Shown here piece after piece: positions 24,370 through 62,101 of a stretch of 64,000 nucleotides of DNA; within the stretch, counting starts at the first letter, position 1; each line of letters begins with the position of its first letter. The position numbers were made by a program, and so were the translations under genes. The DNA comes from Eledone cirrhosa (lineage: Eukaryota). The notes beneath the pieces were generated by a model. The model saw only the letters and a program-made list of their open reading frames with translations. It did no database searches and had not been told where the DNA came from. The stretch lies in assembly GCA_964016885.1 (NCBI GenBank), contig OZ024741.1, positions 139,624,001 through 139,688,000 on the forward strand. The letters run 5' to 3'.

Positions 24370-24440
24370 TATTTTATTATGCGCATTTCAAAAACAAACA
24401 TCATCATGCATTAATATTTGTGTTTTCATCAGATAAAACA
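24370..24440 (-). ncRNA. Minimal type I hammerhead ribozyme
   Basis: TTTTAT-CTGATGA-stem II-GAAA-TGCGCA-TA-ATAAAA on the minus strand. Confidence 0.8.
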
Positions 24441-25711
24441 GGAGAACATCATATGAAGGCTAAAAAACACTTGTGGATAGTGCAGTTTTAAATCAACATA
24501 TAAAAAGGGGTTTAAGATTGATGTGTGATATTGGGAAAAATATTTTATTTAGAGAGGGGGGGGTGGAAAGGATGAAAAGGGAAGGAGATGAGAGGGAGAG
24601 ATGGGTGATAGAGAGAAAGAGATAGTTTTTATAACTGAGAGGAGATATATTGTTTTACATAGAGAGGTTGAAAACCGTTGGAAGATAATGTATGAATTAA
24701 AAATTTTGAAAATTAACGAAGGGAGGATATGTGCGAGGAAAAAATATTTTATTTAGGGAGGGGGGGGGGATGAAAAAAAGGGGGAGGAGATGAGAGTGAA
24801 GGTGGAGAGGGAGAGATGGGTGATAGAGAGAAAGAGATAGTTTTTATAACTGAGAAAAAGATATATTGTTTTAACATAGAGAGGTTGGGAACCGTTGGAA
24901 GATAATGTATAAATTAAAGGAATTTGAAAATTAACGAAGGGAATTTATGTATGAAGATAGAGAGAAAAAAAAAATAATAATTGTGGATGAATATTCTAAC
25001 GTCAAAAAAAGAAATGTATGTATTGTGGCAATTTCAAAATTAACGAAGAGAAAAATTATTAAGGTTTGTGTGTAGAAGGATTTGAGAAAAATAATGTGAA
25101 GTTAAAGTTTGTATATTGAAGGAATTGATACTATATGCGAATAAAGAATTAATATGTATTAATAATGAGTTCGTTGATGGGGAGAAAAATGTAATAAATT
25201 AAGGATGAAATTGAGATTAAAAAGATTTATGATAGAGAGAAAAAATAATAATTGCGGATGAATATTCTAACGTTAAAACAACAAATGTATATGTTATGAT
25301 TTTACAAGGTGAAGATAGAATGAGGGTAATGAGTAAACAAGTATTATAGAGTGTATAATGCCCTTTAAAGTAAGGTAGATGGGTATATTTTAAAGAGGTG
25401 TATGTATATGTGCCTTTGAGAAAAGATTCTAAATTGATAAAGAATTGAATATTAACTGTATACTTTGTGAAAAGTTCTATGGAATTTATGCAGGCAGATA
25501 GAAAACAAATCTGTGCGTCTATTTATTATAGAATCTAGGTTAGAGATAATGGTAAATGTTTCATTTAGGCAGTGATTACAGATTTTAGATAGAGAGCTGT
25601 TCAAGGATGAGGATGCAGAAGAAATCTTCTTCCAAAAAATGGTATATTTAATATTTTTGTCTTTTAAGGACCATATGAGTTCTGAGAGAGCAGTGTTGGT
25701 TCTTTTAAGTT

Positions 25712-25966
25712 AAAAGAACCAACACTGCTCTCTCAGAACTCATATGGTCCTTAAAAGACAAAAACATTAAATATACCATTTTTTGGAAGAAGATTTCTTC
25801 TGCATCCTCATCCTTGAACAGCTCTCTATCTAAAATCTGTAATCTCTGCCTAAATAAAAAATTTACCATTATCTCTAACCTAGATTCTATAATAAATAGA
25901 CGCACAGATTTGTTTTCTATCTGCCTGCATAAATTCCATAGAACTTTTCACAAAGTATACAGTTAA
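25712..25966 (+). pseudogene. C-terminal part of a PLE GIY-YIG endonuclease domain (mirror copy at about 25452-25706 on -)
   Basis: Manual translation KRTNTALSELIWSLKDKNIKYTIFWKKISS..KICNLCLNKKFTII..IINRRTDLFSICLHKFHRTF*. The CxxC..R..CxH tail resembles Hydra-type PLE endonucleases. Not in the ORF track because it has no start codon. Confidence 0.75.
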
Positions 25967-26979
25967 TATTCAATTCTTTATCAATTTAGAATCTTTTCTC
26001 AAAGGCACATATACATACACCTCTTTAAAATATACCCATCTACCTTACTTTAAAGGGCATTATACACTCTATAATACTTGTTTACTCATTACCCTCATTC
26101 TATCTTCACCTTGTAAAATCATAACATATACATTTGTTGTTTTGACGTTAGAATATTCATCCGCAATTATTATTTTTTTCTCTCTATCATAAATCTTTTT
26201 AATCTCAATTTCATCCTTAATTTATTATTTTTTTCTCCCCATCAACGAACTCATTATTAATACATATTAACTCTTTATTCGCATATAGTATCAATTCCTT
26301 CAATATACAAACTTTAACTTCACATTATTTTTCTCAAATCCTTCTACACACAAACCTTAATAATGTTTCTCTTCGTTAATTTTTGAAATTGCCACAATAC
26401 ATACGTTTCTTTTTTTGACGTTAGAATATTCATCCACAATTATTATTTTTTCTCTCTATATTCATACATAAATTCCCTTCGTTAATTTTCAAATTCCTTT
26501 AATTTATACATTATCTTCCAACGGTTCCCAACCTCTCTATGTTAAAACAATATATCTTTTTCTCAGTTATAAAAACTATCTCTTTCTCTCTATCACCCAT
26601 CTCTCCCTCTCCGCCTTCACTCTCATCTCCTCCCCCTTTTTTTCATCCTTTCTACCCCCCCCCTCCTTAAATAAAATATTTTTTCCTCGCACATATCCTC
26701 CCTTCGTTAATTTTCAACATTTTTAATTTATACATTATCTTCCAGCGGTTTTCAACCTCTCTATGTAAAACAATATATCTCCTCTCAGTTATAAAAACTA
26801 TCTCTTTCACTCTATCACCCATCTCTCCCTCTCATCTCCTTCCCTTTTCATCCTTCCCCCCCCCTCTCTAAATAAAATATTTTTCCCAATATCACACATC
26901 AATCTAAAACCACTTTTCATATGTTGATTTAAAACTGCACTATCCACAAGTGTTTTTTAGCCTTCATATGATGTTCTCC

Positions 26980-27050
26980 TATTTTATCTGATGAAAACAC
27001 AAATATTATTGCATGATGATGTTTGTTTTTGAAATGCGCATAATAAAATA
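26980..27050 (+). ncRNA. Minimal type I hammerhead ribozyme
   Basis: Stem I TATTTTAT/ATAAAATA; CTGATGA 26988-26994; stem II CAAATATTATT/GATGATGTTTG; GAAA 27031-27034; palindromic stem III ATGCGCAT. Predicted cut after A27042. Confidence 0.85.
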
Positions 27051-59400: not shown

Positions 59401-60896
59401 CGCCTTCTACTCCAGATACGTTGATGACATACTGATACTCACTTCTTTCCGGGAGATGGCGAATGAAATTCACCAAATCTTTAACGACACTGACCATCAC
59501 GTCGATTTCACCATCGAAAACCCTGAAGAAGATGGGTCACTCGCCCTCCTCGACTTCCGTATCAACATCTCGGAAGAAGGAGACATAAACACCACCTTCT
59601 ACCGCAAGGTAGCGTGCAAGGATTTATTTGTGCATTACAACTCAGCCCTCCCAACAACGCTAAGAGAGGCTATGTCCAAAATGAATTTATACGGATCACT
59701 AATAGATGCAGCGACTCGATGGGTGGTCTCACCCATACCACGCAATTCCGTAATCTACTCAAAGTCTAACGGATATCCCAAGCGACTGATTAACGGAATT
59801 AGAGACCCCAGACCCAATAGACAGACACCCACTAGAAACTTAGATAAATAGAAGTGCTTCTTTAAAATCCGTCACCTGAGTGAATATACCACGAACGCCA
59901 TCCGCAGGGCCATACGGAGGGAGGGACTTGATATACATTTGGCCCACACAGGACCTTCGCTCCGAAGATGCCTCTCCACCAAACCCGACGAGTCAGATGG
60001 GACGTGTTCCCTCAGCAACTGCCCGATACGGGGGGCAGATTGCCTACGCACCTATGTCGTATATAAGATTCAATGCGATAAATGTAACAAGTTTTACATA
60101 GGTAGCACCATCCGACCCCTACATGTTCGTATCAAGGAACATGTCAACACCAACGCATCTTCCTTCCGTAAACACATCCTTAAATGAGGAAACCCACAGG
60201 GAAGACCCTTGGTCACAGTCCTAGCGACTGAACGCAACATCGGATCCTTAAGGATAAAGGAAGCACTTGTTATTAAGAACCTCAGACCCCTACTTAACAA
60301 CCGGGCTGAGAGAAATGAACTGACATGGCTAATCTAACCATAGTGACCAGTAACAGCCCCTACGGCCTACTATCTTTCACACACACGCACTTATATGTAT
60401 ACCCATACACATACACACACACACACACACCTATATTTATACACGCACACATGTTTATACACCTACCACCTTTCACACCCTTTGAATTCCAGCTTCTACG
60501 GCCCACTATCTTTCACACACACACACTCACATACATACACACATACACATATACAGACACAGTTGCACACACATTTATATTTACACACACATATTTTACG
60601 GCTTTCACGCGCTAGCGCACCCTATTGATCTAACCCAATTGGTCAGTAGCTTTTGCCACAGCTTATGACGCGCACGCGCACTCTTTCCCTCGTTTGAATT
60701 TTTCCCCATAACGGCATTCCAATGTTTTAACAACAACTTTCTCCGGCTTAGCCTGTTCCCCCCCCCCCTTTGGGAACTTTCCCCCCGTTGATGGGCGTGA
60801 GCCCGAAATATTGGGATTAAATCTCCACTACGGTAATCCTTCTACCTTTGTTTTGTTTTCGTTTCTCTCATTTTTCACTTTTCTTCTATTTCTTAC
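56443..60896 (+). mobile_element. Penelope-like element: inverted 3' fragment (56443-57405), short inverted internal piece (57405-57485), 5' pseudo-LTR, ORF, 3' pseudo-LTR
   Basis: Three copies of the same pseudo-LTR sequence (one minus, two plus). The left end lies in (TA)n. Confidence 0.92.
57720..60337 (+). pseudogene. Penelope RT + GIY-YIG endonuclease ORF with stops and frameshifts
   Basis: PSDKG, KTHK..IRPIVS, SLDVVALYTSVP, GLPMGSSLS, RYVDD, Cys linker CSLSNCPIRGADC, VVYKIQCDKCNKFYIGST.R.L..RIKEH, EALVI..P.LN. Confidence 0.93.
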
Positions 60897-61865
60897 GACA
60901 ATAATAAATTATATCTTGCAATCATAGAATTATAAGAACCTTCAAATAATATAAACCTAATTAATATACACCTTACACTTATATTTTACATATTATTATA
61001 ATTAGTTTTTTTTATTTAGTTAACCTATAATTAGTATTTTACTACAGAGATCTTCATAATTTTATTTCCCTCTTACAGCTCTCTTTTCCTAAAATTAATA
61101 CCTAAAAGTATACATATAAATTAATTGAATTCTTCGTTATGAATCTAGATTCCTTGTAGTTTATATAAGATTGGTAGTTCTCACTACTACCCTTATCCCA
61201 AAATGTTATTTTTCTTCATTTTTAACAACATTCTTTAAAAACATCTAATTCTTATTTATCACATCCATATGAATTAATAAAAATGTATCCCTATAAGTAT
61301 ACCTATCGCTTAATTTAATTTCTTGTTATAGATCTAGATTCCTTGTGGTTTAAATAAGATTGGTATTTCTCACTAATACCCTTACCCTAAACTGTTACTC
61401 TTCTTCGTTTTTAACAATATTCTTTAATAACATCACATTTTCGTGTATCCTTCACCGGCTTGACCTCTTTTCATCCCCAAATATTCTTTTCATTCAAAGT
61501 ATTTTTCCATTCAAAACATAAGTCTGCACTCCTCTAGCCCTAAATTAAATTTCTGCTACTACTATTCTATCAACTTGACCTCTTACTACTTTTCTATTGG
61601 TCAATTCAAAACCTGTTACCAAACATACCTATTATATTAAATCTTTGTTGTTTTTTTTTCAATAAACAAATCTCATCATTTCTGAAGACAGCATATATAT
61701 GTGCAGGTATGTACATTTCCTCTGATAGTTTGTAATAATTTTACATAGATGCACATGATATACATACCAACACACATATATATCCTAGAAACGATCGTAA
61801 AATGATGAATATTTTAATTTAAAGGAACTTGTTCTTTGTTTTTATTCATTGTGTTTTATTAATTT
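60897..61865 (+). mobile_element. 3' remnant of a second Hydra-like PLE
   Basis: Starts with SCNHRIIRTFK* (compare SICLHKFHRTF at 25920). AT-rich UTR with a duplicated block (61125-61255 / 61317-61435), a hammerhead, then (TA)n. Confidence 0.65.
61673..61808 (+). ncRNA. Type I hammerhead ribozyme with a 99-nt stem II
   Basis: Stem I TCATCATTT/AAATGATGA (9 bp), CTGAAGA 61682-61688, GAAA 61788-61791, palindromic stem III ACGATCGT. Predicted cut after A61799. Confidence 0.8.
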
Positions 61866-62045
61866 ATATATACATATATATATATATATATACATACACA
61901 AACACACACACACACATATATATATATATATATATATATATATATATATATATATATATATATATATATATATATATCCATCCCAAGGCTCTGATACCAT
62001 CAACACCATAAACACAGAAGAGCTGGCATATCTAAGAACTGACTA

Positions 62046-62101
62046 ACTGCCTGAGGAGGTCATAGCCATTCAATGGCTATCATCGAAATATATATACCAG
62101 T
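62046..62101 (+). ncRNA. Minimal type I hammerhead in a ~170-bp PLE tip (61977-62150) between TA tracts
   Basis: ACTGC-CTGAGGA-GGTCATAGCCATT-C-AATGGCTATCATC-GAAA-TATATA-TA-CCAGT. Confidence 0.75.

Follow-up and report, generated by a model that had tools for sequence, protein, structure and literature searches.

Several described systems lie close to the one reported here. Penelope-like elements (PLEs) of the Hydra clade are defined in PMC8557442 by features that include DKT, RWK, CxCx5C, CxxC and CxH motifs and the lack of a CCHH motif. Hydra-1_Obim from Octopus bimaculoides is presented there as a 2,507-bp element without a pseudo-long terminal repeat (pseudo-LTR), with a preference for (TA)n and a 3′ hammerhead; no copy number for it was found in the passages of PMC8557442 consulted. 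Minimal hammerheads as described in PMC4209133 have neither helix III nor loop 3 and a highly conserved G10.1-C11.1 pair, and dimer cleavage of such ribozymes is covered in a review (PMC6765202) and in PMC4209133 and PMC6155905. Here we analyzed a stretch of 64,000 nucleotides from Eledone cirrhosa (contig OZ024741.1, positions 139,624,001 to 139,688,000 of the forward strand, in the following termed the window), for which ten hammerhead motifs from six sequence families had been predicted. Truncated or fold-back PLE insertions, likely of the Hydra clade, very probably carry these motifs as type I hammerheads at their 3′ ends, and in such fragments the motifs are likely idle passengers. The element class and its hammerhead have been published before, even from Octopus; what is new is the scale, together with a young, intact family.

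A structural descriptor requiring, in this order, stem I, CTGANGA, stem II, GAAA, a palindrome, TH and again stem I identified eight intact cores in the window, at 24432 (-), 26988 (+), 28970 (-), 36945 (-), 39651 (+), 45407 (-), 61682 (+) and 62051 (+). Tolerating one mismatch in GAA added 29119 (+, AAAA) and 39621 (-, GCAA), the two motifs for which a mutated GAAA had been proposed, as well as a weak match at 4554 (-), beyond the span of the ten. All ten motifs were found where the original prediction had placed them, and the four cleavage positions given there (after 27042, 39700, 61799 and 62096) were reproduced exactly. In full agreement with the expectation that motif frequency should exceed that of shuffled sequence, 100 block-wise dinucleotide shuffles of positions 24000-62200 averaged 0.18 matches and never exceeded 2, against the eight observed, and reversed sequence gave none. 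The motif observation is real and far above chance. The core CUGANGA is kept in all ten motifs, GAA together with A15.1-U16.1 and H17 in eight (29119 and 39621 being mutated), and a 7-8-nt palindrome separates GAA from H17 in every one. G10.1-C11.1 occurs in only two of the eight intact motifs. An Rfam scan of the window with E-values up to 5 returned hairpin look-alikes and no hammerhead family, so that standard annotation overlooks these motifs.

While all ten motifs are present, they represent only seven insertions. Self-comparison revealed three palindromes (24332-27088, 28871-29220 and about 39500-39850) with two back-to-back motifs each, the pairs 24432/26988, 28970/29119 and 39621/39651 forming their two arms; six of the ten motifs hence face their own antisense copy, and four solo ends complete the set. 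Arm identity is 97% in family A, 91% in B and 92% in C, and one arm per palindrome extends further as a tail. Each insertion ends in a (TA)n tract, which is short for family F. A search of the 3.0-Gb source genome (G000), with 40 candidates scored per family, showed that all six families are multicopy and dispersed and end in (TA)n; at first look there were at least 257 candidates for A, 680 for B, 1146 for C, 1687 for D, 2986 for E and 698 for F. Copies within a family share a common 3′ end and differ in their 5′ reach. The majority core is CTGAAGA in family E and CTGATGA in the five others.

The parent element became apparent from four family A loci, picked for motif spacing. An 800-aa open reading frame (ORF) starting from ATG is open in all four, and three of them have two directly oriented hammerheads separated by about 3.7 kb. 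The units are 98.7-99.3% identical to one another. A complete unit spans 3,689 nt, and each direct repeat holds one hammerhead. In locus L031, a (TA)n tract is followed by an inverted end with tail, the pseudo-LTR, the ORF, the 3′ untranslated region (UTR) with hammerhead and again (TA)n, which is the arrangement given for Hydra elements in PMC8557442. Its predicted cuts would yield a 3,689-nt RNA with the ATG 213 nt from the 5′ end. Family A insertions extend past the predicted cut by about 45 or 130 nt. The encoded protein, P0001, combines a reverse transcriptase (RT) with a GIY-YIG endonuclease at the C-terminus in a single ORF and carries RWT at position 37, DKT at 123, YRDD at 357, CxCx5C at 659, YFGST at 693, its sole CxxC at 759 and CxH at 787, while CCHH is absent; it agrees with the Hydra definition in DKT, CxCx5C, CxxC/CxH and the lack of CCHH. 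Eighteen homologues share 29-38% identity with it, and telomerase RT is the best structural match of its predicted structure (pLDDT 79.5). A Neptune-like label for the family A ORF was dropped in favor of the Hydra definition in PMC8557442. Sequence resembling the P0001 endonuclease lies upstream of the motif and on its strand in copies of D (L158), E (L153, L154) and F (L155), which bears out the proposal that the motifs are PLE hammerheads.

The individual insertions fit this picture. Family A (24249-27090, both strands) forms a palindrome of about 2.8 kb, consisting of two 5′-truncated Hydra-type PLE 3′ ends around a center at 25709, flanked by (TA)n tracts and with a tail of ~85 nt on the left arm; contigs aligned at the center were too fragmented to bridge it. 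Each arm holds the last 85 endonuclease codons (P0001 716-800, 94% identity), and the arms are 95-96% identical to full-length L031. Hammerheads A1 (24368-24442, -) and A2 (26978-27052, +) have intact cores, stem III ATGCGCAT and predicted cuts after 24378 and 27042, respectively. Note that the predicted cut falls into an AATAAA hexamer (27042-27047 in the window; A and C copies), about 45 nt before the short A 3′ end; since this hexamer is absent from B, D, E and F, the overlap may be due to chance. Family B (28783-29218, both strands) is a short palindrome of two 3′ ends with a left-arm tail, in which B1 (28912-28980, -) has an intact core, stem III ATATGTAT and one private mismatch in stem I, and G12 is mutated (AAAA) in B2 (29109-29179, +). 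The short family C palindrome (39500-39850, both strands), with a right-arm tail, carries C1 (39561-39631, -, GCAA) and the intact C2 (39641-39710, +), and a solo C end follows at 45212-45475 (-; hammerhead 45348-45417, stem III ATATGTAT). Family D is represented by a solo 3′ end at 36751-37246 (-), with the hammerhead at 36897-36955, stem III ACACTGT and a GUU site. The family E 3′ end (60896-61865, +) comprises the last endonuclease codons and the 3′ UTR, its hammerhead (61672-61809, +) having a stem II region of 99 nt and stem III ACGATCGT. The solo family F end (61978-62150, +) contains a hammerhead at 62041-62106 whose N7 and stem I differ from its family: all 11 other copies read CTGATGA and 10 of these 11 have an intact stem I, which is mismatched here, so that the window copy is regarded as decayed. 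The claim that all four N7 bases occur is upheld by a genome sample (T 28, A 17, C 12 and G 7; n = 64), but the G at 62051 is private to the window copy.

Two candidates for full or source elements were rejected. L083, in which 4,765 bp separate two B copies, turned out to be a tandem duplication, and the PLE at 57750-60330 lacks significant similarity to P0001 and has terminal repeats without CTGANGA. It lies within a decayed non-Hydra PLE (56445-60900) with RVT_1 and GIY-YIG matches in Pfam, DKG, a CxxC within the endonuclease and inverted terminal copies, inside which CTGANGA does not occur.

A number of points weigh against the assignment to Hydra-clade PLEs and against functional interpretations of it. 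P0001 has RWT at position 37 in place of the RWK of the Hydra definition, and the 3,689-nt unit exceeds the Hydra norm of under 3 kb, a size that is typical rather than strict. Searches of Pfam with P0001 and its alignment and a sequence search of the PDB gave no match, and the TM-scores of the model to TERT reach only 0.28-0.37. Clade membership appears likely on the grounds of motifs, not of a reference tree. Families B and C are tied to P0001-like endonuclease via relatives only (L148, 72% over 1.2 kb, and L152, 80%). Finally, the fact that diverged families conserve the stems shows that active elements are under selection, but not for which function.

How would Hydra-type PLEs leave so many hammerheads behind? 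The endonuclease would nick (TA)n, and reverse transcription would begin just downstream of the hammerhead. Most insertion events would abort or fold back, and nearly every fragment would therefore hold one or two motifs; the motif load would thus arise because aborted and fold-back insertions keep the motif, not because of selection on each copy. In a full-length transcript, the two repeats are predicted to pair via their 8-nt palindromes, to swap stem I and to release a unit-length RNA, probably assisted by the element protein. Solo fragments would be without a partner, and fold-back pairs would form long duplexes instead. Copies extend across the predicted scissile bond. Since every copy crosses it, we infer that the template is uncut or re-ligated RNA. 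This agrees with PAc Poseidon from Anolis, where unprocessed RNA is reported as the main substrate and the hammerhead as cleaving only with protein and being dispensable for insertion in vitro (PMC11167929), and also with the circular-template proposal put forward in PMC4209133.

The very high genome-wide load that had been predicted was confirmed by scanning the genome with exact patterns and sampled tiles with the descriptor, both of which gave counts far above controls. The exact pattern for the ATATRTAT class of stem III matched 76,080 times (control 116), that for the wider alternating-palindrome class 111,521 times (control 3,795) and that for the long-stem-II class 12,691 times (control 11). 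The latter two add up to 124,212 matches against 3,806 in controls, or 41 per Mb. Both stems were present in 50 of 54 sequence-only matches to the wider pattern within 1.4 Mb, compared with about 10 and 8 in shuffles. An unbiased sample of sixty 10-kb tiles at fixed positions (600 kb) contained 71 descriptor matches, 64 of them remaining after a filter for a stem III of 6 nt or more, and shuffles gave 0-2. The same filter dropped 26 of 67 rows in blocks sampled from gene regions, 17 of these originating from one tandem repeat. The length-weighted tile estimate is 3.2e5 motifs (bootstrap 2.2-4.4e5); the tiles also hold 35 exact-pattern matches where 25 were expected, which scales to an estimate of about 2.3e5. 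Taken together, these values suggest 200,000-300,000 motifs in the genome, of which the majority are probably idle. Their predicted position in (TA)n tracts was borne out as well: (TA)5 lies within 300 nt downstream of 61 of the 64 sampled motifs against a background of 25%. The motif is found 40-250 nt from the element 3′ end, and truncated copies therefore retain it. The window is no special cluster, as the descriptor finds 125 motifs per Mb here and 107-118 in the tile mean; exact patterns occur at about 2.6 times the genome mean (7 vs 2.7), and at least eight motifs per 40 kb were reached in 15% of draws from resampled tiles. A scan that combined the full core with a long stem III inside the monomer returned three matches in 600 kb, compared with 0-1 after shuffling; one of the three re-reads a motif with a short stem. 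A scan for a six-base core stayed at background (6 vs 3-8). At least 15 further hammerhead families occur in the samples (L088-L147, L160-L239), with stem II regions of 13-116 nt and stems III that include ACTAGT, ACCACTGGT, ACTAATTAGT and AGAACT.

Published counts amount to 9,000 hammerheads in Xenopus tropicalis (PMC4209133), over 6,000 in Acropora and 126,247 in axolotl (PMC7229834) and 235 by Rfam in the giant squid (PMC6962438). Because descriptors differ between studies, a comparison of such counts is indicative. No hammerhead census of an octopus genome was found in the literature searched. Lunse et al. 2017 may report large counts, and a record load is not claimed here.

Could this pool be active in the host? 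Stem III is, as had been proposed, self-complementary, and it is not predicted to form in monomers: the folding probability of A15.1-U16.1 is 0.00-0.05 for all ten motifs, in keeping with a dimer-type design. The palindrome duplex is weak in B, C, D and F (-1.6 to -3.2 kcal/mol) and strong in A and E (about -10 kcal/mol). Within the window, families B and C match each other in both stem I and stem III, A shares stem I but not stem III with them, and F shares stem III ATATATAT but not stem I. On our reading of the dimer geometry, a double hammerhead would swap stem I as well as stem III, and matching stem III alone would thus be insufficient. Cross-family dimers formed through stem III are consequently predicted to be possible for B with C but not for F, which is mismatched in stem I despite sharing ATATATAT. 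Among 41 sampled members of the ATATRTAT class, a cross stem I of 4 or more contiguous bp can form in one direction in 589 of 820 pairs, which leaves the cross-family idea structurally open; this compatibility is probably due to common descent.

It is conceivable that nascent host transcripts spanning two compatible same-strand copies, also of different families, form double hammerheads and are cut. The 76,080 matches of the ATATRTAT class and their cross-pairing would provide the partners, same-strand B and C copies stand 10-16 kb apart in the window, and motif density in gene regions, inferred from same-strand clusters of Pfam exons rather than annotated models (nine regions, 800 kb), is about half that of the tiles (41 per 800 kb vs 64 per 600 kb). 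However, this depletion is seen on both strands, and the filtered motifs in inferred introns comprise 20 in sense and 21 in antisense orientation, solo motifs 9 and 12, a count of modest power with which a twofold sense deficit is compatible. Before filtering, the gene regions held 39 descriptor matches in sense and 28 in antisense orientation (p = 0.22). Intronic sense copies show no sign of purging. Furthermore, pairing through ATATRTAT is weak (-2.2 to -3.2 kcal/mol), the stems I consist of AU-rich sequence, and few intact motifs have the G10.1-C11.1 pair, as stated above. PLE hammerheads are described as slow even as dimers (PMC4209133), and RNA-seq ends at the PAc site are reported to be absent (PMC11167929). 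The two palindromes that were folded, B and C, are each predicted to form one long duplex with the motif buried, which, along with the balanced strand counts, speaks against the suggestion that host pre-mRNAs are cut. We therefore consider such cutting quite unlikely. A more elaborate version, in which the protein of the young Hydra family would chaperone cross-family dimers that cut nascent host RNAs, fold-backs would supply long double-stranded RNA genome-wide and the load would be among the densest known, with a motif every 10-25 kb and dimer interfaces interchangeable between tens of thousands of copies, strikes us as improbable, if marginally less so.

An origin of the motifs from non-LTR retrozymes, which are non-autonomous and replicate through small circular RNAs, is very unlikely. 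Many copies are non-coding and only 200-500 bp long, and such retrozymes have been proposed to be PLE derivatives (bioRxiv 10.64898/2026.07.22.740005). Yet non-coding head-to-tail repeats of 150-450 bp with one hammerhead each, as are characteristic of non-LTR retrozymes, were not found: the window contains no head-to-tail array of a motif-bearing unit, close pairs are inverted and not direct, and the variable 5′ ends reach endonuclease coding sequence while the 3′ end is common, which contradicts this origin for A, D, E and F. It can practically be dismissed that AT-rich repeats produced the motifs by chance, or that the pairs are fold-back artefacts of assembly. The loose descriptor does pick up false motifs in repetitive sequence (17 of them in a single tandem repeat of ~1.2 kb in the region of a giant immunoglobulin (Ig)-domain gene; L227-L233, G000:C10:13.09-13.16 Mb), but chance is refuted by the shuffled and reversed controls, and the palindrome arms show 3-9% divergence and have differing end points that are typical of their family.

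Further observations concern the surroundings of the motifs. An abundant (TA)n-flanked repeat (23462-23601 and 39067-39219 in the window; also L017:900-1000, L054, L129:660-770 and L145) terminates in sequence resembling a hammerhead 3′ half, with a GUC site and a stem III of 5 bp. It matched 63 times in the fetched sequence, 24 of these in the 600-kb sample, and only four copies keep a 5′ half, three of them reading CTGAGA, in which N7 is missing, with a 5-bp stem I. Its fold is ambiguous (stem III probability 0.00-0.58), no relevant literature on CUGAGA cores was found, and the repeat may be a candidate variant of the hammerhead core or not a ribozyme. Fold-back insertions by (TA)n with no recognizable core at 27122-28203, 29558-29707, 36448-36669 and 45575-46057 are probably ends of other PLE families. 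The window also holds a PIF1 helicase fragment at 37297-38595, likely a Helitron relic, several long interspersed nuclear element (LINE) copies with matches to RT and AP-endonuclease (1-18700 and 47200-56050), an element whose terminal inverted repeats are 215 nt long and include tandem units of 34 bp (62156-63238), and, at 27509, 41238 and 46149, what we take to be the consensus of an octopus short interspersed nuclear element (SINE).

The 99%-identical, ORF-intact Hydra family with its pseudo-LTR makes the role of PLE hammerheads testable; no functional test of Hydra-clade hammerheads was found in the literature searched. In addition, the copy number permits a well-powered test of whether intronic ribozymes harm their host.

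Compared with the Hydra-clade elements and Hydra-1_Obim as presented in PMC8557442, the E. cirrhosa elements share the C-terminal GIY-YIG domain, DKT, CxCx5C, the lack of CCHH, the (TA)n target, a palindromic stem III in a hammerhead located close to the 3′ end, an inverted 5′-truncated copy and a tail. They differ from Hydra-1_Obim in the 3.69-kb unit with a clear pseudo-LTR, in RWT for RWK, in the presence of at least six families, in a stem III that is mostly a perfect 8-nt palindrome and in stem II regions of up to 116 nt. With the metazoan PLE minimal hammerheads of PMC4209133 they have in common heterogeneous families, mostly solo motifs, a dimer-dependent design, opposite-strand pairs 100-700 bp apart and a long helix II. 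Unlike these, they keep a 7-8-nt palindrome between GAA and H17 and often lack G10.1-C11.1, so that they depart from the minimal type as defined there, and counts of up to 9,000 per genome stand against at least 120,000 here, obtained with different descriptors. The axolotl retrozymes (PMC7229834) resemble them in number (about 126,000 type I hammerheads), in a weak helix III and in better cleavage as dimers; those are non-coding 330-350-bp tandem repeats that are expressed as circles, in a 28-Gb genome, at about 4.5 per Mb, whereas the dispersed PLE ends described here reach 40+ per Mb, about nine times that density if the differing descriptors are borne in mind. PAc Poseidon (PMC11167929) likewise has a pseudo-LTR hammerhead, two 3′ ends that define a tail and an AT-rich target. 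It belongs to another clade, however, and its hammerhead overlaps the start of the ORF, whereas in E. cirrhosa the ATG lies 213 nt downstream of the predicted cut and the tail measures about 85 nt.

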